Below, in pieces: positions 2,806-57,705 of a stretch of 64,000 nt of DNA (position 1 is the first letter of the stretch; each line of letters begins with the position of its first letter). Origin of the DNA: a virus. The DNA lies in IMG/VR virus record IMGVR_UViG_3300037493_006316, positions 1-64,000 of that record; one strand, 5' to 3'. The notes under the pieces were generated by a model. That model was given only the letters and a program-made list of their open reading frames with translations, did not search any database and was not told the DNA's origin. Position numbers and translations under genes: made by a program.

Positions 2806-3398
2806 GCGGTCACCCGCTCGAACTCGACCACCCACACCCAGGGGTTGTCTTCCCACCGCACGCCGGGGGCGTTGTAGGCGCCGCTCCACACGTGCGGCCA
2901 CTCCTCGAAAACGTGGACGCCCTCGGCCCTGATGTCGGCCAAACTGATGCTGCGGACGCGCTCGACGCGCACCGCGACGACGCGCAGGGTGAGCCGCGAG
3001 GCCCACCGCGGCATGTGGATCGACGGACGCCACTTGGGCGGGTCGAACTTGTCGCCGTACTCGTCAATCCCGCCGCGCAGGTCCTCAGGCGTGAAGTCGG
3101 CGCGATAGTCGACCACCGCGCTGTCGGGCCAGGGGTCGCGAGGCTTGGGGCGTTCGGCAAACTGTCGCCAGGCCTCCCGCACCCACAGCAGATCGCCGGG
3201 TGCGCCGAACGGGCAAGGCTTGCTCCACTCGCCGTCCTCGGTGTAGGCGCCAAAGCACTCAGGCCCGGGCCCGGCTTCGCCGTAGCGGTCGGTCACGACC
3301 GGGTGGTAGTCGCCCACCAACAGGCGGCTGACGTCCGGCACACCCTTGATGGGCCGGCGCGTCTGCATCTTGTGGCCAGCAAGGATGGCCTGGACCAT
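2802..3398 (-). CDS. Conserved phage protein (ASCH/PUA-like, QTRRPIK...WRPSIHMPRWASR family)
   Basis: Motifs MVQAILAGHKMQTRRPIK, GDLLWVRE, WRPSIHMPRWASRLTL, NPWVWVVEF. Confidence 0.75.
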   Translation of the reverse strand: MVQAILAGHKMQTRRPIKGVPDVSRLLVGDYHPVVTDRYGEAGPGPECFGAYTEDGEWSKPCPFGAPGDLLWVREAWRQFAERPKPRDPWPDSAVVDYRADFTPEDLRGGIDEYGDKFDPPKWRPSIHMPRWASRLTLRVVAVRVERVRSISLADIRAEGVHVFEEWPHVWSGAYNAPGVRWEDNPWVWVVEFERVTA

Positions 3399-5029: not shown

Positions 5030-6538
5030 TCAGGCCTCCAGGCTGCGGACAATGGCGTCCGCCATGCGGTTTGCGGTGTTGACGCCCCGCCAGACGCGCA
5101 GCGTCCGAGGGGTGCCGAAAGTCGTCGCGCACTCGGCGACGGCGCCCGGCGGCTCGTAGGCGGCAGGCGCGCTGCGGGCGCCGAAGCTGTCCGCCCAGAT
5201 CAGCGGGCGGGCGCTGGCCTTGGCCAGCATGACGAGGTCGGGCATGCCGTCCCCGTCACCAGCCCAGATCACGCGGCCGATCCGCCCAGCGGCCAGCAGC
5301 GGCGCCAAGAGCTCACCCACGGTGTCGTCGTGGGCCCAGGTCAGGCCGGCCAGCGGGCGGCCGATGGGGCGGTAGCCGTCGACCATCTGGCCGTTGCTGT
5401 GCACGATGACCGCCACGCGGTCATCAAGGCGAGCGGCCTCGACGGCGCTGGCGAGCAGGGCGTTGGTGACGCCAGCGCACGAGCCGCTGACGTCGACGAG
5501 AATGGCCACTACCGCAGGCTCGGCAGCCGCGCGACGGGCGCGGGCGAGGCGGTAGCTCCTGCCCGCCAGCTCGCGCACAAGGCGCGCGCCGTCGAGCTTC
5601 GGGATGGGGTCGCCGAGAGTGCCGAGGTCATCAGCAAGCCGGCGGATGGCGCGCACCACTTGGCCAGCCGCTTGGCGGGCCACAGGCATCTCGCGCTCAA
5701 TGTCCACCGGGGTCACCACAACCCCACCGAACGAGCGGCGGGTGGTGGAGGCGGCAGCGGGTGAGGAGGCATCCCCGCTGTCGTGGTCAGGCCGTGGCGC
5801 CTTGCCCCGCCGACGCTCATCCGAGGGCTTAGCCTCCCCCGGAGCCAGCTCCGGGGTATCGCTCTCGGTGTCGTCGTCGGGGGTTGCGCCGGTTTCGCCC
5901 TCACGGGCCTCCCGTCGCTCAGCCCCAGCTGCGGAGGGCGGGTCAGCCGGGGGCGCACCTTGCGGTGTCCCGTCGGCCTGACGTTCGCCTTGTCCGCCGC
6001 CGCGGGGCGGGGTCTGTGCATCGGTCACGTCCTTTGGGGGCTTGCCCCCACCTTGCGGCTTGGCGCCAGCCAAGCCAATCGTTTCGCCAGCGCAACCGCC
6101 GCTGCCTTCGTTGCGGGCGTCTTCGCGCTCGACCTCACCGGAGGCGCCGTCGCCCCCGTGAAGTTCACCATCGTCCGGCTCGTCGCCAGTTTCGGCGACC
6201 TCGTCGGTGCCCTTCGGGCGGGACTTCGGCGGCGCCACGGGCATCACCGGCTCCCGCCACCGGCCGACGCCAAGGCGGTCAACCGTTGCGGCGGGCAGGT
6301 GGTGCCAACAGCCGCCAGAGCGGTGGCCGCCCTCAGGCCGGCGGCGCGCCATGACGTCGCCCTCGCTGGTGCGGACGATGCTGCAGCACCAGCACCGCGC
6401 ACCGAAGCTGTGCACCGTGTCGTCAAGGGTCCGAACGAACGCCTCTGCCTGCCGCTCGATTTCGCTGGGCGCGTAGCGCTCGCCTGCAGGGCGAGCGCAG
6501 AGCCGGCGAAGGTCGCGATAGGTGAGAACGTTGGTCAC
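5030..6538 (-). CDS. VWA (MIDAS) domain protein with low-complexity linker; probable MoxR partner
   Basis: ILVDVSGS (DxSxS) and VIWAGDG motifs after a long acidic Gly/Pro linker; downstream of a MoxR ATPase. Confidence 0.7.
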   Translation of the reverse strand: MTNVLTYRDLRRLCARPAGERYAPSEIERQAEAFVRTLDDTVHSFGARCWCCSIVRTSEGDVMARRRPEGGHRSGGCWHHLPAATVDRLGVGRWREPVMPVAPPKSRPKGTDEVAETGDEPDDGELHGGDGASGEVEREDARNEGSGGCAGETIGLAGAKPQGGGKPPKDVTDAQTPPRGGGQGERQADGTPQGAPPADPPSAAGAERREAREGETGATPDDDTESDTPELAPGEAKPSDERRRGKAPRPDHDSGDASSPAAASTTRRSFGGVVVTPVDIEREMPVARQAAGQVVRAIRRLADDLGTLGDPIPKLDGARLVRELAGRSYRLARARRAAAEPAVVAILVDVSGSCAGVTNALLASAVEAARLDDRVAVIVHSNGQMVDGYRPIGRPLAGLTWAHDDTVGELLAPLLAAGRIGRVIWAGDGDGMPDLVMLAKASARPLIWADSFGARSAPAAYEPPGAVAECATTFGTPRTLRVWRGVNTANRMADAIVRSLEA

Positions 6539-6555
6539 GGGCGCCTCCAGGGGAC

Positions 6556-7482
6556 TCAGTGGGTGACGGGAAACAGGGCGATGCAGCCGAGGCGGTCCAC
6601 GAACGCGCCCACGGCCCGCGTCGCGGCCTCGGGGTCAACCTGAAAGGTGCCACGGTAGAGGCGACCCGTGGGGGTCGACGCAATGACGTGATCGAATCGA
6701 CGAGCGGCCTCGCCGCCGTCGACGACGACCAAGACGCCCCAGCCGCCGTGGTCGGCGCAGTAGAAGGTCGTGCCCACGACGGTGGGCGGCGCCGCAAAGG
6801 CGCGATCAAACCGCGGCTCGTCAGGCGTGCCATCGCGCACCATGCTCTGCAGCATGGCGCCCCCCACCCGGCGAGGGGTGCCGGTGAGGCACACAGACGC
6901 GGGCAGCGACACAAGCTCCCGCGCGAGGAGCGCCTTGGCGAAGCCGCCATCCAGGCGATCAATCTCCTGCGCAATGACCGAGGCCCATTTGTCTGCCGCA
7001 GCAGCGGCAGAAGGCGCCCTCAGGGGCCAGAACACAACCCGCCCAGTCCGTCCGGATGTGTCGATCTGGGCACCATAGTGATCGTCGACCGGCAGACCGC
7101 CGATGAGCGCGCGCAGGCGGACGATGGCGCCGAGAACGGCGCGCACATCCTGCTGACGGTCCATCCGCCCGCCGACCCACTCGTGGGCCACGGGCCGGCC
7201 AGCCAGGGTCGAGAAGCTCGGCTGGCCGGCAAGCCGACCGCCGTGCAAGGCGAGCCACAGCGCGATGGCCAAGCGCCAGCCCTCAGATACGTCACCGCCG
7301 ACGTCAGCGGTGACGCACAGCGTTTTGCCGAGCAACGCGAACCGCATGCCCTTGGTTCCGACGGCGGCCACCGCTTGGGCGCCGACCACGAGTCGGTGAC
7401 ACCTGGCCAACTGGTTGAACAACTCGCCGCGGTCGTCGCTGCCGGGGGCGGCGACCAAGTCAAACTTCCACGATTCCATCAT
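6556..7482 (-). CDS. Hypothetical protein between MoxR and VWA genes
   Basis: Start MMESWKFD after GGAG, just downstream of promoter copy 2. Confidence 0.55.
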   Translation of the reverse strand: MMESWKFDLVAAPGSDDRGELFNQLARCHRLVVGAQAVAAVGTKGMRFALLGKTLCVTADVGGDVSEGWRLAIALWLALHGGRLAGQPSFSTLAGRPVAHEWVGGRMDRQQDVRAVLGAIVRLRALIGGLPVDDHYGAQIDTSGRTGRVVFWPLRAPSAAAAADKWASVIAQEIDRLDGGFAKALLARELVSLPASVCLTGTPRRVGGAMLQSMVRDGTPDEPRFDRAFAAPPTVVGTTFYCADHGGWGVLVVVDGGEAARRFDHVIASTPTGRLYRGTFQVDPEAATRAVGAFVDRLGCIALFPVTH

Positions 7483-7524
7483 TGTCGACTCCGCTGGTTG
7501 GTGGCCGGCGCCGCCGGCTCCTTC

Positions 7525-7553
7525 TCTGTAACCGGACAAGTAGCAACGCGCAA
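7525..7553 (-). promoter_or_regulatory. Repeated early promoter copy 2 (TTGCGC-17-TACAGA)
   Basis: Minus strand TTGCGC gttgctacttgtccggt TACAGA. Confidence 0.6.
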
Positions 7554-7571
7554 CCCGCGCGCCTGAGGTTT

Positions 7572-8417
7572 TCAGCCGGCGGCCCGAGCCAGCCTGAGCT
7601 CGCCCCACACAGGGGCAGCAGCGTCGCGGCCCGTGAGCATCTGGTAGCCGGCCGGGCCTCGGGCCAGGCAGCTGGCCAGCACCGCACCCACGTCGCCGAC
7701 ATCTTCAGCCTGCTGAAGGGCGCGAACCGCGCGCCCCATCTCGGCGAGGGTCGGCACCGCGCCGTCCGCCTGGGCGGCGCGGTTGGCGGCGCTGCGAACC
7801 ACCCGGCAAAGGCCGGCGCTTGAGCCCGTGCGCTCGCGCAGCAGGCGCAGCTCGGTGGCCTCATCCAGCCGGGTGATCGGCACGCGCCGGCAGCGGCGCA
7901 GCAGTGCATCGCCGATCTGGCGGGCGCCGTTGCTGGTGATGACCACCAGCACGCGCTCGGCGCGCAGGCGAAGGTGGCGACCGGGCGCCACCGGAACGCG
8001 GCCGCTCTGCAGCGCATCGAGGAGCAGGTGCTCCACGCGCTCAGGGGCCTTGTCCAACTCGTCGATCAAGAGTACCACGGGGCCCTCCTCGGCGGCCTGG
8101 GCTGCCAGCGCAAGCACGCCGGGCTGGCGCACCGCCGAAGCATCGCCAGCCACCGCAGCGGCCACGTCGACGCCCACAAACAGCTCGTCGGCGTCGCTCC
8201 AGGCGTGCGCCTGGTAGGCGACCAGCCGGGCGCCGGTCGCGACCGCTGCAGCCTCGGCCAAGGCGGTCTTGCCGGAGCCCGGGGGACCCTCAAGCAGCAG
8301 GGCTGCGATCTGGCCGCTCCGCTGCTCGGCCAGCTGGCCAGCAAGGGCCAGCAACTCGGGGCGACGGGCGACGTAGCCGGCAGCCGCAAGGGCCGCACTC
8401 AGCGCAGAGGGGGTCAT
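7572..8417 (-). CDS. MoxR-family AAA+ ATPase
   Basis: Walker A EGPPGSGKT, Walker B LLIDELDK, ITSN...DALLRRC sensor/Arg finger. Confidence 0.85.
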   Translation of the reverse strand: MTPSALSAALAAAGYVARRPELLALAGQLAEQRSGQIAALLLEGPPGSGKTALAEAAAVATGARLVAYQAHAWSDADELFVGVDVAAAVAGDASAVRQPGVLALAAQAAEEGPVVLLIDELDKAPERVEHLLLDALQSGRVPVAPGRHLRLRAERVLVVITSNGARQIGDALLRRCRRVPITRLDEATELRLLRERTGSSAGLCRVVRSAANRAAQADGAVPTLAEMGRAVRALQQAEDVGDVGAVLASCLARGPAGYQMLTGRDAAAPVWGELRLARAAG

Positions 8418-8455
8418 GACGGACTCCAAGGGGGAAGGTGGCCGGGTATTCGCTC

Positions 8456-8632
8456 GCTTGCGCGAGCCGCCTCCCGGCAGGGCGACCATTTTAGAGTGTC
8501 GGCACTCTGAAAGTGGGTTTGTTTCAATGGGGCTCGGGTCTTGTCCCCGAGAGGTATTGTTATTTTGCGGGCACTGACGTCGGTTTTGGGATGTCTCAAT
8601 GAGCGCCACCCCGAAGGGCACCGGGCTTTCAC
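8456..8632 (-). CRISPR. Cryptic CRISPR-like mini-array with non-identical repeats (2 clear repeats, 2 spacers, degenerate terminal hairpin)
   Basis: Minus strand: GTGAAAGCCCGGTGCCCTTCGGGGTGGCGCTCATTGAGAC (8632-8593), 36-nt spacer (8592-8557), TACCTCTCGGGGACAAGACCCGAGCCCCATTGAAAC (8556-8521), 34-nt spacer (8520-8487), GTCGCCCTGCCGGGAGGCGGCTCGCGCAAGC (8486-8456). Repeat 3' ends are 72 nt apart; each repeat is a hairpin; spacers are 47% and 44% GC. Confidence 0.7.
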
Positions 8633-8667
8633 CGGTCCGCGGCGGGGGCCGCGGGGCCTTGCGAGAC

Positions 8668-8976
8668 TCAGGCCGCCTCCTCCCAGAGGTCCGGCAGGCA
8701 GTCCCAGGCGTCGACCGCCTTCTGCCATTCGAGGTGCGCCTCGTACCAGCCGGAGTCCTCTTCCTCGCCCTCGGCCAGGGCAAGGGCGGCCGTCTCATGC
8801 GTGCGCAGGGCGTCGGCGGCGGCCTCGAAGGCGGCCATGCGCTCGGGCTTCGCCAGCCCGTTGATGTGCTCGGCCTCGTCGGCCGACTCGCAGCTGAGAA
8901 ACTGCCGCTCGGCGGCGCGGGCCTTGGTGGCGGAGCCCTGGGCGAGCTTGATGGCGTTGCGGGCGAGGCTGTTCAT
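8668..8976 (-). CDS. Small acidic protein between promoter copy 3 and the mini-array
   Basis: MNSLARNAIK... 102 aa, AGGAG RBS, Glu/Ala/Trp-rich C-terminus. Confidence 0.65.
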   Translation of the reverse strand: MNSLARNAIKLAQGSATKARAAERQFLSCESADEAEHINGLAKPERMAAFEAAADALRTHETAALALAEGEEEDSGWYEAHLEWQKAVDAWDCLPDLWEEAA

Positions 8977-9029
8977 GGCGGGCTCCTGCGGTGGGGTGGT
9001 GGTCGCGGGCACCGCCCGGCGACACACAG

Positions 9030-9058
9030 ACCGTATCCGGGGGAGTAGCAACGGGCAA
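9030..9058 (-). promoter_or_regulatory. Repeated early promoter copy 3 (TTGCCC-17-TACGGT)
   Basis: Minus strand TTGCCC gttgctactcccccgga TACGGT. Confidence 0.65.
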
Positions 9059-9108
9059 GGCCGACCCGCGATCTTTTTTGCACGACCGCGGGACGGCTCA
9101 TGAGCGCG

Positions 9109-9747
9109 TTACTCTCGGCGTTCGCCCTTGATGCGCCACGCGGGCAGGGCGTCGAGCAGCGTGGGCCCAGCTCGACGCGTGCGCGCCGGCCGGCGCCAGA
9201 CGCACCAGGCCGAGCCGCAGTTGTCGCTCACCTTGGCGCCCGGGGTGCCGTCCTTCTTGAGCTTGCGGTGCAGCTCGCCGCCGGGCCCGTCCCACACGGG
9301 GCGCAGGTCGCTGACGTAGATCGCGCAGGGCGGGTCTTCGCCGCTCATGAGCTGCTCGATGGTCGTCGCCCGCAGCAGCAGGCCGAGCACCTCGGCGCCG
9401 GTCCGGTCCTGCAGGGCGCGGTGCTGAGCGATCACCTGGTAGATGTTCCGATAGGCCGGGTTGGTGGCGATCAACGTGCGGCCGACGCAGTCGGGGTGCC
9501 AGTCGTCGACGCGCGAGTTGTGGACCTGGATCGGGCGCGGGTGGGAGAGGTTGAGTGCGCCGCGGTTGTCGATGTCGCAGCCCTCGAGGTGATGCGGCAG
9601 CCACCGCTCCTTCGCGGCGCGCAGGAAGCTGGCCCCGCCTGCCATCGGCTCGAGCACGGTGTTGAAGACGCCGGGCAGCACCGACAGGCAGGCATCGGCG
9701 AGGGCGGCGGGGGTGTAGTAGGCGTCAAAGGGGTCGCGGTCGGCCAT
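9109..9747 (-). CDS. Phage DNA amino-methyltransferase (N6-adenine type)
   Basis: DAYYTP, VLEPMAGGASF (SAM-binding motif I), ATNPAY (NPPY-like motif IV). Confidence 0.75.
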   Translation of the reverse strand: MADRDPFDAYYTPAALADACLSVLPGVFNTVLEPMAGGASFLRAAKERWLPHHLEGCDIDNRGALNLSHPRPIQVHNSRVDDWHPDCVGRTLIATNPAYRNIYQVIAQHRALQDRTGAEVLGLLLRATTIEQLMSGEDPPCAIYVSDLRPVWDGPGGELHRKLKKDGTPGAKVSDNCGSAWCVWRRPARTRRAGPTLLDALPAWRIKGERRE

Positions 9748-9906
9748 TTTCTGTCCTCGTGTGTGCTATGTCAAGTGATTGATAATGCGCGGATCTAACC
9801 CCGCGCGAGGGGCTTTGTCTGGTTGTCGCGATGCCGCTACACGCGACACGCGCACGCGAAAGCGCCGCCCGAACGGCGCCCCCGACGTGTTCGGCTGCGC
9901 AGGTGT

Positions 9907-13608: not shown

Positions 13609-13637
13609 TGCGTATCCGGGCGAGTAGCAACCTACAG
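13609..13637 (-). promoter_or_regulatory. Repeated early promoter copy 4 (weak -35)
   Basis: Minus strand CTGTAG gttgctactcgcccgga TACGCA; same spacer motif. Confidence 0.55.
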
Positions 13638-15805: not shown

Positions 15806-16204
15806 ATGCGTCTCACCCCGACACCCCTTGGTCGACTCATTCGCGAGCGTCGCGCCGCGATGGGCCTGTCTTTGCCCGCCCTGGCGCGCGCCGTCGGCGT
15901 CACCCCGGTCGGGATCGGCGACATCGAGCGGGGCAAGCGGTTCTCGCTCGGTGAGAGCTACTGGCCGGCGCTCGCCTCGGCGCTCGGGGTGGACCTCGAG
16001 GTCGTCGCCGCAGCGGTCGACGCTGACCGTGTTGTAGTCCTTGCGCCGGCCCGGTTCTCCACCGATCACCAGCGCCGGGCCGCGGCCGCGCTTGCCGACC
16101 TCTGTGAGAGCGTGCACCTGCTCAGCGACCCCGAGGCAGCCGCGCTGGCTGTAGCGGTTTCGCGCTTGCACGTTGCCGGTTTCCCGGATACGGATCGGGC
16201 ATGA
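15806..16204 (+). CDS. XRE-family HTH transcriptional regulator
   Basis: LGRLIRERRAAMGLSLPALARAVGVTPVGIGDIERGKR. Confidence 0.85.
   Translation: MRLTPTPLGRLIRERRAAMGLSLPALARAVGVTPVGIGDIERGKRFSLGESYWPALASALGVDLEVVAAAVDADRVVVLAPARFSTDHQRRAAAALADLCESVHLLSDPEAAALAVAVSRLHVAGFPDTDRA
16150..16194 (+). promoter_or_regulatory. Rightward promoter (TTGCAC-17-TACGGA) with upstream repeated motif
   Basis: tgtagcggtttcgcgc TTGCAC gttgccggtttcccgga TACGGA; spacer resembles the leftward copies. Confidence 0.6.
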
Positions 16205-56901: not shown

Positions 56902-57705
56902 TCAGCCGATGTGGCGGATGTCGGGCCAGATCAGCGCCGCCCGGCGGTAGGTCGCCGGCCACCAGCGTTGCAGCCACTGGAAGTGCAACTCGGCCATGTA
57001 GGTGTCGAGCCCGACGACGAACCACGAGTGCCGCATGGCCAACGCGTCGGCGCCGATGTCGATGCAGCCGTAGACCGGGTGCAGCGGCACCTTGTTGGCC
57101 CACAACATTGCGTGCACGTCCAGCGCGGTCCACGCCCGCAGAGGCGCGGCGCGCCAGGTGCCGTCGGCGATCTGGTAGAACGCGCCGCGCGACCACAGCA
57201 GCATGCGGCGGCGCTTGTTCTCCTCGGCGCGCAGGCCCCAGAACATCGAACGCCCCGCGCGTGTGCGGTTGGCGGCATCGAACCAGGGCCCGGACAGCGC
57301 GCCGCGGCGCTGGTCATCGGTGGAGCCGTCGAGCGGCCGCGAGGTGTCGATCTGCACCCACGGCAGCTCCAGCGAGCATTCGACCTCGAGCGCAACACGC
57401 TGCAGGTAGGTCTCCTCTCCCTCCCAGCACAGATCGTCGCGCAGCGACAGCAGCGGCACCCGAACGCCGGCCTCTCGCAGGATCAGCGCCAGCGCCGTCG
57501 AGTCCTTGCCGCCGGACACGCTGGCCTGCCAGGCGTCTGCTCGGGTCATGGCTGAGCGGACCACGTCAACGGCCTCGGCGCGGCGCCGGGCGAACTCGCG
57601 GCTGTTCGCGTGAAGCATCACCTGCCGCGCCGGGTAGCGAACGCCCCAGTCGTCGCGGTCGGGCATCGGGCCGTCCCACCAGCCCTCAAGCGCCTCACGC
57701 CGCAT
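56902..57705 (-). CDS. cysH: CysH-like (PAPS reductase family) protein associated with type IV-B
   Basis: PP-loop SVSGGKDS, WGLRAEE..RR, PLRAWTALDV, PLHPVY; last gene of the csf operon. Confidence 0.88.
   Translation of the reverse strand: MRREALEGWWDGPMPDRDDWGVRYPARQVMLHANSREFARRRAEAVDVVRSAMTRADAWQASVSGGKDSTALALILREAGVRVPLLSLRDDLCWEGEETYLQRVALEVECSLELPWVQIDTSRPLDGSTDDQRRGALSGPWFDAANRTRAGRSMFWGLRAEENKRRRMLLWSRGAFYQIADGTWRAAPLRAWTALDVHAMLWANKVPLHPVYGCIDIGADALAMRHSWFVVGLDTYMAELHFQWLQRWWPATYRRAALIWPDIRHIG

Follow-up and report, generated by a model that had tools for sequence, protein, structure and literature searches.

The stretch of DNA analysed here, hereafter the window, comprises 64,000 nucleotides (nt) and is the first 64 kb of the IMG/VR virus record IMGVR_UViG_3300037493_006316, a complete virus genome of 86,223 bp with 127-bp terminal repeats and a G+C content of approximately 72%. 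An earlier note on this DNA had described, at positions 8487-8592, a CRISPR (clustered regularly interspaced short palindromic repeat) mini-array with two spacers that resemble promoter or operator DNA and that might guide a nuclease-free effector to such sites. Our analysis found a Twister-sister self-cleaving ribozyme at this locus, the 3′ product of which would begin with a one-mismatch copy of the 8-nt tag that Cas6b-made CRISPR RNAs (crRNAs) carry at their 5′ end, followed 36 nt later by a hairpin-bearing, repeat-like element that ends in an exact copy of that tag. The reading that we favor, to which we would assign a probability of roughly 45%, is that the first of the two spacers is a single crRNA-like guide with a 5′ tag made by the ribozyme and a 3′ end made by a Cas6b-like enzyme, and that the second is the leftover leader of an ATPase mRNA.

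Features of the locus

All features of the locus lie on the minus strand, and their order of transcription is thus from high to low coordinates:

8589 to 8669, minus strand: Twister-sister self-cleaving ribozyme (RF02681), matched by the covariance model over its full length, with a predicted cut between C8601 and A8600
8593 to 8600, minus strand: first octamer, AUUGAGAC, the predicted start of the ribozyme 3′ product, which matches the Cas6b tag at seven of eight positions and is also the 3′ strand of helix P1
8557 to 8592, minus strand: spacer 1, the candidate guide, 36 nt, 47% G+C, unstructured
8521 to 8556, minus strand: repeat-like element, 36 nt, consisting of a 6-bp hairpin (8551 to 8533), CCCC, and then AUUGAAAC (8528 to 8521)
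8487 to 8520, minus strand: spacer 2, 34 nt, with a hairpin of 6 bp that can be lengthened into a palindrome of 24 nt (8512 to 8489)
8441 to 8478, minus strand: third leader hairpin, two-tiered, followed by a GGAG ribosome-binding site and an ATG
8668 to 8976, minus strand: acidic open reading frame (ORF) of 102 amino acids (aa), of unknown family, with a G+C content of 0.91 at third codon positions and a stop codon that adjoins the ribozyme
7572 to 8417, minus strand: MoxR-like AAA+ ATPase gene, the next cistron (AAA_5, 4.7e-16; AAA, 1.3e-12)
9033 to 9058, minus strand: 26-nt putative promoter, a perfect copy of an element conserved in this phage

The two spacers had been placed correctly in the earlier note, their sequences being the exact reverse complements of 8557-8592 and 8487-8520.

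The Twister-sister ribozyme

The Twister-sister class was reportedly discovered by Weinberg et al. in 2015. A summary of that discovery is given in PMC6154101. In the phage, the match to RF02681 reached 54.5 bits, where the gathering score is 34 (E = 1.7e-9), spanned positions 1-81 of the 81 in the model, and was the only one in the 86-kb genome. None of the core motifs GCAAGGCC, GUGNAAGCC, and GGCGCUCAU is missing, and a strict core pattern (GCAAGG(CC), GUGNAAGCC, and GGCGCUCAU in that order) matches the window from 8662 down to 8599. What had been taken for the upstream repeat of the mini-array belongs to the ribozyme, of which it comprises the P5 hairpin, the conserved GGCGCUCAU, and the P1 helix's 3′ strand.

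The class has been described as cutting at C62-A63, after C58-G59-C60-U61 (GCGCUC^AU; PMC5660989). Because the class cuts at a C-A step, the ribozyme here would cut between C8601 and A8600, and its 3′ product would start at A8600 and read AUUGAGAC. In this ribozyme the strands of helix P1 are GUCUC/GAGAC, plus one additional U, and it is for this reason that the predicted product begins as it does.

A scan of IMG/VR with the strict core pattern returned at least 160 other Twister-sister matches in 113 loci, many of which come from a few gut samples and are not independent. Among the 160 matches listed, the product starts with AUGGG in 157 and with AUGGU in three, none has a product within one mismatch of the Cas6b tag, and none has ATTGARAC within 200 nt. 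A Shine-Dalgarno sequence and start codon lie downstream in 138 of the 157 evaluable matches listed, at a median distance of 51 nt (90th percentile, 108 nt), and the corresponding distance in this phage is 183 nt. Tandem copies of the ribozyme are common in phages, with up to five per locus among the matches listed.

A conserved element of approximately 100 nt that contains CGCGCACCCATCGC was seen directly 3′ of 35 of the 160 listed matches, mostly in gut phages (loci L104-L216; for example, at approximately 3100-3220 on the plus strand of locus L113). No Rfam family reached its gathering score on this element in the four loci scanned, and it may be an undescribed structured RNA or a partner of the ribozyme.

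Tags and repeat-like element

In two organisms, with repeats of 37 or 30 nt, AUUGAAAC has been described as the 8-nt 5′ tag of Cas6b-made crRNAs (PMC3479195), and the octamer from 8528 down to 8521 is an exact copy of it. The pattern ATTGARAC, read on both strands of the 86,223-bp genome (172 kb in all), occurs twice against an expectation of 0.62, and both copies are at this locus, on the same strand, and 72 nt apart, which is the 36 + 36 spacing of spacer 1 and the repeat-like element. Exact ATTGAAAC is present as a single copy in the genome, inside the repeat-like element. When the 175 nt downstream of the first octamer were shuffled, a copy with at most one mismatch appeared in 3.7% of shuffles and exact ATTGAAAC in 0.13%. 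The hairpin of the repeat-like element forms in both the minimum free energy (MFE) and the centroid folds, and a Cas6 cut would be expected directly before 8528.

The proposed mini-array therefore survives in part: a repeat that ends in the Cas6b tag is present, while its upstream "repeat" belongs to the ribozyme and there is no third repeat. The two "repeats" share only their last 9-10 nt in an alignment, which is not an array of near-identical repeats, a search for repeat families at the locus came back empty, and neither k-mer spacing nor Tandem Repeats Finder detected array-like repeats anywhere in the genome. The repeat-like element gave no match to the CRISPR-DR families of Rfam at E values up to 10, and an exact scan of IMG/VR with its 3′ part gave one match, a chance match in an A+T-rich coding region. 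On the plus strand, its hairpin resembles a terminator; no plus-strand gene lies upstream of it.

One might ask whether a second Twister-sister ribozyme once stood here in tandem and has decayed so far that the element is its remaining 3′ end, given that tandem copies are common and that its hairpin and the next 15 nt match the 3′ end of the ribozyme at 10 of 15 places. We consider this very improbable: there are no 5′ core motifs upstream, Rfam reports nothing there at E values up to 10, and the element is unchanged in a contig from two related metagenome runs (X2 and X3, below) even though the coding flanks of that contig differ by 5-7%, from which it can be argued that the element has a present function.

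A different user of the tag has also to be weighed, namely a host class 1 CRISPR system, for which the RNA would be a decoy, comparable to the RNA anti-CRISPRs (Racrs), or a hijacking guide, rather than a guide for the Csf proteins of the phage. Types I-B, I-C, and III use AUUGAAAC-like tags. The unit also includes a small acidic ORF of unknown function just upstream, solitary phage repeats that mimic host repeats have been described (PMC10651486), and phage mini-arrays have been described in anti-CRISPR loci (bioRxiv 10.1101/2023.03.03.530964). The lack of a CRISPR-DR match speaks against this possibility, and the phage's own Cas6b-like enzyme and effector would be the simpler user; we regard it as improbable.

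The alternative with the greatest claim to attention, unlikely as we judge it to be, is plain processing of an intercistronic mRNA. The ribozyme would separate two cistrons, the 183 nt would be a leader that stabilises or tunes the ATPase mRNA, and the octamers would be a coincidence. The locus indeed resembles the intergenic Twister-sister ribozymes of other phages in having a full-length match with all core motifs between two cistrons and on the coding strand, an arrangement that is evidently common given the IMG/VR matches and the frequency with which a Shine-Dalgarno sequence and start codon follow them. Conservation extends over the entire gap, both spacer 2 and the third hairpin form structures, and no target was found for spacer 1, all of which would fit an mRNA leader. 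The locus differs from those ribozymes in its product (AUUGAGAC as opposed to the AUGGG of 157 of the 160 matches listed) and in its distance from the start codon, 183 nt as opposed to a median of 51 nt, which also exceeds the 90th percentile of the matches listed. Neither the tag-like product nor the nearby ATTGARAC accompanies any of the 160 listed ribozymes. The coincidence required is a joint one and its chance is small (two octamers that occur only here, one at the ribozyme cut site and one an exact tag after a hairpin, with 36 + 36 spacing), and the phage keeps a Cas6b-like gene without any array. If this alternative were true, the "mini-array" would be a ribozyme and an mRNA leader, and the idea of promoter targets would be dropped.

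The two spacers

The near-palindrome ACCGACGTCAGT that the earlier note had pointed out in spacer 1 is present, with five of six pairs, although it is equalled or bettered in 23% of 2000 shuffled versions of the spacer and its GACGTC core is broken by a G>A substitution at 8579 in contigs of all four related runs; it is thus at chance level and not conserved. As RNA, spacer 1 has an MFE of 0, and 200 of 200 shuffles fold at least as well.

The palindrome of spacer 2 was borne out. AGAGTG-N4-CACTCT extends to 24 nt with nine of ten pairs, a result reached by 0.15% of 2000 shuffles, and the corresponding RNA hairpin has a free energy of −6.7 kcal/mol (z = −3.41; two of 200 shuffles as good). No repeat follows spacer 2. 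In light of this self-folding, the missing repeat, and the identity of spacer 2 in the X2/X3 contig, the proposal that spacer 2 is a guide is not supported; a structured leader at the 5′ end of the ATPase mRNA is the likelier role for it. The layout CCCA...AGTGCC...AAAAT that the two spacers had been said to share corresponds to a gapped alignment score of 27, compared with 17.5 ± 3.2 in shuffles, 0.75% of which reach it; the likeness is above the shuffle level, and it is a modest, post-hoc similarity.

An in-frame ATG that ends spacer 2 (8489-8487) was considered as an alternative start of the ATPase and was dropped, there being no ribosome-binding site before it. The ATPase reading frame is open upstream across the whole gap and the ribozyme, as far as an ATG at 8798 (7572-8798, minus strand).

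The picture of a two-spacer mini-array whose guides lead a nuclease-free effector to promoters or operators, be they those of host defence genes or those of rival phages, was that of the earlier note and is one that we now find quite improbable. Both strings have a G+C content of 44-47% in a phage of 72% G+C with only six islands of low G+C, and because of this composition a like-composed source would most likely have supplied strings from non-coding DNA. Both strings end in a −10-like AAAAT, and phage mini-arrays against host cas promoters, type I-B among them, have been described (bioRxiv 10.1101/2023.03.03.530964). Set against these points are the lack of a target, the strong self-folding of spacer 2 and the lack of a repeat after it, and the chance-level palindrome of spacer 1, broken in relatives. 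The resemblance between the two strings counts against this picture as well, since it suggests that they were not acquired independently. Of the idea that the spacers are guides for a nuclease-free effector, the half that concerns spacer 1 stays plausible in view of its tag, the hairpin repeat, and a csf operon with a Cas6b-like gene; the half that concerns spacer 2 does not.

Conservation among relatives

The virus is a freshwater phage. Near-identical DNA is contained in a sediment metagenome run, from which it may have come, and relatives that are approximately 90-96% alike were found in four aquatic, freshwater, and lake runs (X2-X5) from four studies; no DNA similar to this virus was found in a collection of 50,697 phage records. 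A 16,017-nt contig is common to X2 and X3, and all 30 of its differences are listed. Its coding flanks carry 12 substitutions in the 218 nt of 8200-8417 and 16 substitutions plus two indels in the 233 nt of 8668-8900. The 250-nt gap between the two genes carries three changes: G>A at 8579, T>C at 8587, and the deletion of one nt, 8644, from a loop of the ribozyme. Both substitutions in the gap are inside spacer 1, for which the chance is approximately 0.02 (36/250 squared), and no change affects either tag, the repeat hairpin, or spacer 2. For X4 and X5, 31 of 44 and 12 of 32 differences, respectively, were seen. That spacer 1 is a guide and spacer 2 a leader would explain why the former is unstructured and holds the only substitutions in the gap, and why the latter is folded and invariant.

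Two more distantly related phages were read whole, one a fragment (G001, 33% complete by estimate) and the other complete at 133 kb (G002). The closer relative is G001 (Csf2 73-74% identical), which has cas6; the fragment does not include the present region. The Csf2 of G002 is 47% identical over the ORF and 44% in the tblastn match, and its genome has csf1-3 and cysH and no cas6. Neither G001 nor G002, read whole, contains an array, a tag octamer, or a ribozyme over the cut-off (best score, 20.8 bits). That the complete G002 lacks cas6, octamer, and ribozyme together speaks for the reading of spacer 1 as a guide.

Two similar A+T-rich islands occur in G002 (78786-78856 and 83846-83919) and share CGGATTATTTTCT...CATGGG-N-CGG, one of them being directly after csf2 and the other directly before cysH in this cas6-less, type IV-B-like cassette.

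The csf operon and its Cas6b-like protein

The candidate user of the guide is encoded elsewhere in the window:

56902 to 61676, minus strand: type IV-B-like csf operon, array-less
60498 to 61676, minus strand: csf1 (PADLOC typeIV_Cas8, 3.3e-12)
59097 to 60284, minus strand: csf2/cas7 (PADLOC typeIV_Cas7, 1.1e-40; NCBIfam csf2 below the curated cut-off)
58463 to 59100, minus strand: csf3/cas5 (NCBIfam csf3 below the curated cut-off)
57695 to 58462, minus strand: Cas6b-like gene (PADLOC Cas6, 8.1e-6)
56902 to 57705, minus strand: CysH-like PAPS reductase gene (Pfam PAPS_reduct, 3.7e-8)

The operon has no nuclease. Seven homologues of the Cas6-like protein were found (46-98% identity), and the residues W-H-N-H-G-D-D are invariant in all eight sequences. 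A profile of these eight sequences has the Cas6b of M. maripaludis (4z7k) as its best match among solved structures, a weak match (E = 0.12) in which the alignment lays H-N-H on residues 38-40; Cas6b has been described as having two catalytic histidines, H38 and H40 (PMC3479195). Pfam Cas6b_C is matched by all eight members, in every case below the curated cut-off. For Csf2, no match was found on plasmids, a scan of genome contigs with a Csf2 alignment came back empty, and there was one distant actinophage match (27% identity).

Searches for targets and promoters

The target searches covered the phage itself, G001, G002, IMG/VR, JGI metagenomes, phage records, and plasmids, and no protospacer was found in any of them; prokaryote genomes were not scanned with either spacer, and spacer 2 was not run on metagenomes. 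Within the phage, the best ungapped matches were 21 of 36 for spacer 1 and 21 of 34 for spacer 2, both at shuffle level; that of spacer 2 is its own palindrome on the other strand, and elsewhere its best is 20 of 34, compared with 19.7 ± 0.8 in shuffles. One such 20-of-34 match, to an A+T-rich leader at approximately 82990, was rejected as being at shuffle level. In G001 and G002, ungapped matches of 19-21 were likewise at shuffle level. A seed scan of the phage genome (18 nt, every sixth position ignored, at most three mismatches) gave chance matches in coding regions only, and the exact words of at least 9 nt in the phage genome were all G+C-rich words of coding regions, with no complementarity to cas promoters.

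BLASTN with 8480-8600, which covers part of the check proposed for the spacers, yielded nothing in the 50,697 phage records and a single plasmid match at E = 4. A pattern built from nt 1-23, in which each sixth base was allowed to vary, had no IMG/VR match for either spacer; the spacer 1 pattern had two matches in JGI metagenomes, both in coding-looking DNA and neither extending past nt 23, and we regard both as chance matches. With matches either absent or in coding-looking DNA, an outcome that the earlier note had named as refuting, the suggestion that the strings resemble or target promoter or operator DNA found no support in the collections searched. Because its "repeats" are not near-identical and its spacers matched no foreign DNA in these collections, the locus does not qualify as a canonical CRISPR array.

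The A+T-rich island might in principle be local regulatory DNA, with a promoter for the ATPase operon and with the palindrome of spacer 2 as the operator of a phage repressor. It is the largest of the six islands in the 86-kb genome that have 30-nt windows of at most 45% G+C, and the significant palindrome ends just before TAAAAT. A consensus scan nevertheless found no sigma-70-type promoter (−35 and −10 boxes spaced 16-18 nt apart) on either strand of 8418-8667, and within 7500-9800 a single one, at 9774 to 9746 on the minus strand; by eye, neither AAAAT box has a −35 box 16-18 nt upstream. In the gap there is no copy of the phage's own 26-nt promoter-like element, and the unit is already flanked by copies of it at 9058 and 7553. 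The palindrome does not recur in the genome above the shuffle level (20 of 34 as opposed to 19.7 ± 0.8). We accordingly give very little credence to local regulation, and the earlier suggestion that spacer 2 is itself an operator is likewise not supported. Spacing of the extracytoplasmic function (ECF) sigma type, measured from TGAAAC, was rejected by eye, since 13 and 19 nt do not fit the consensus.

Proposed mechanism

Under the favored reading of spacer 1 as a single guide, the 106-nt stretch would be part of a transcribed gap between the 102-aa gene and the ATPase gene, in which the Twister-sister ribozyme would cut the RNA directly after the stop codon of the first gene. The downstream RNA would begin with 5′-OH-AUUGAGAC, a near copy of the Cas6b-type 5′ tag. 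The Cas6b-like enzyme of the phage would then cut at the hairpin repeat, at the exact tag AUUGAAAC, and the RNA so released would consist of the tag, a 36-nt guide, and a 3′ hairpin. This crRNA-like RNA could be loaded into the phage's own nuclease-free Csf complex, or into a host class 1 complex with the same tag, and the remainder (AUUGAAAC, spacer 2, and the further hairpin) would be a structured 5′ leader of the ATPase mRNA that holds no second guide. The sequence itself shows the ribozyme match, both tags and their spacing, the folds, the cas genes, and the conservation; self-cleavage in vivo, the Cas6 cut, the loading into Csf, and any target are predictions. A single guide would explain why there is no third repeat and why the type IV-B cassette keeps its Cas6. 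The more specific claim, that the ribozyme replaces the leader-side repeat of a one-spacer array and that, together with the Cas6b-like enzyme, it yields a dedicated guide for an array-less type IV-B effector, is tentative, and we would place the odds somewhat against it.

Several observations weigh against a guide at this locus. The first tag departs from the Cas6b tag at one position and, as a strand of helix P1, is under the constraint of the ribozyme too, and the recurrence of the octamer is, taken alone, significant only at p ~ 0.04. The ribozyme scores lower, at 54.5 bits, than examples from gut phages (79-91 bits). The string composed of the ribozyme end and the tag has 84 exact matches in 83 IMG/VR stretches, and none of the 84 is a ribozyme; one ribozyme core motif is found upstream in five of them and both in none. 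A guide embedded in an mRNA between two ORFs is unusual, and the csf operon is 48 kb away from it. The link to Cas6b is weak by sequence (E = 0.12 to 4z7k; Pfam below the curated cut-off), and a type IV-B complex reportedly forms on non-CRISPR RNA of a heterogeneous kind (bioRxiv 10.1101/2020.07.31.231399). The arrangement is seen in only one lineage, in which all four related runs are near-identical and too close for spacer turnover or covariation to be seen. To these is added the lack of a protospacer in the collections searched.

Comparison with known systems

In its working, the candidate unit would come closest to what Shmakov et al. (bioRxiv 10.1101/2023.03.03.530964) describe as phage mini-arrays and crRNA-like RNAs, which are likewise short repeat-spacer units far from any full array, have type I-B (Cas6b) examples, and are proposed to steer a Cas complex without cleavage. 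It would differ from them in that a ribozyme replaces the upstream repeat, in that no complementarity to a cas promoter was found in the phage genome, and in that the phage has effector genes of its own. With the type I-B crRNAs made by Cas6b (Richter et al. 2012, PMC3479195), as there described, it has in common the tag AUUGAAAC, a repeat length close to their approximately 37 nt, and, in the enzyme, two histidines one residue apart; here there is one repeat, self-cleavage would produce the other tag, in which one position is mismatched, and the effector genes are of type IV. The operon resembles the subtype IV-B systems with a CysH-like partner described in PMC7937560 in having csf1-3 and a cysH-like gene, no nuclease, and no array, and it differs from them in its extra Cas6b-like gene and, should the guide be real, in a dedicated guide elsewhere in the genome. 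Racrs, as described in PMC10651486, are also solitary repeat-like RNAs in phage genomes, yet they mimic host repeats and carry no guide, whereas here a 36-nt unstructured stretch is found between the tag and the repeat.

Type IV-B systems lack both an array and a known guide, and the one complex studied bound heterogeneous non-CRISPR RNA; the candidate unit offers a concrete, defined RNA to look for in a type IV-B complex. In engineered ribozyme-flanked guide RNAs, which are synthetic, a self-cleaving ribozyme sets the 5′ end of the guide. The same 5′-end principle would operate here in a natural RNA if the favored reading is true. Full-text literature searches found engineered ribozyme-guide designs only and no natural CRISPR guide that is shaped by a ribozyme, with the proviso that papers beyond their coverage could differ, and as far as those searches go this would be the first. 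If the guide serves the type IV-B effector, such systems could be RNA-guided by cryptic guides that are capped by a ribozyme and lie at a great distance from the cas genes. A member of a ribozyme class about whose function in phages little is known would, under the favored reading, also gain a biological role.

Transcription unit and neighboring genes

The likely genes between 1 and 16 kb are almost all on the minus strand. The 26-nt promoter-like element, which can be written TTGCNCGTTGCTACT-N3-CCGG-N-TAC and whose conservation extends even to the bases that separate the putative −35 and −10 boxes, has five matches in the window, compared with none in 100 shuffles: perfect copies at 2259-2284, 7528-7553, and 9033-9058 and copies with three mismatches at 13612-13637 and 16166-16191. 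Its copies precede successive units of the early region. Those at 9058 to 9033 and 7553 to 7528 flank one unit that consists of the 102-aa ORF, the 250-nt gap, and the ATPase gene, and transcription of this unit probably starts at the former.

The 102-aa protein has no Pfam or PHROG match. Homologues of 81-91% identity were found in Logan, ENA, JGI, and NCBI assemblies; none was found in IMG/VR, and alignment-based pattern scans of metagenome and genome contigs were also empty. Relatives of the ATPase occur in IMG/VR at two distant loci (47-56% identity), both of them without a ribozyme. Downstream of the MoxR-like ATPase are a 350-aa ORF and then a 502-aa ORF (5030-7608, minus strand), the latter with a weak match to VWA_CoxE (E = 0.006, below the cut-off), which may indicate a MoxR-VWA pair in the early region. 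The sigma-70-type promoter match at 9746-9774 on the minus strand (TTGACA-17-GAAAAT) precedes a 212-aa ORF with a match to a DNA-methyltransferase family of PHROG. Beyond the window, at 82945-82987, an A+T-rich island contains an inverted repeat (CTTTCC...GGAAAG) that overlaps the ribosome-binding site of a gene starting at 82979 and is a possible hairpin for translational control.

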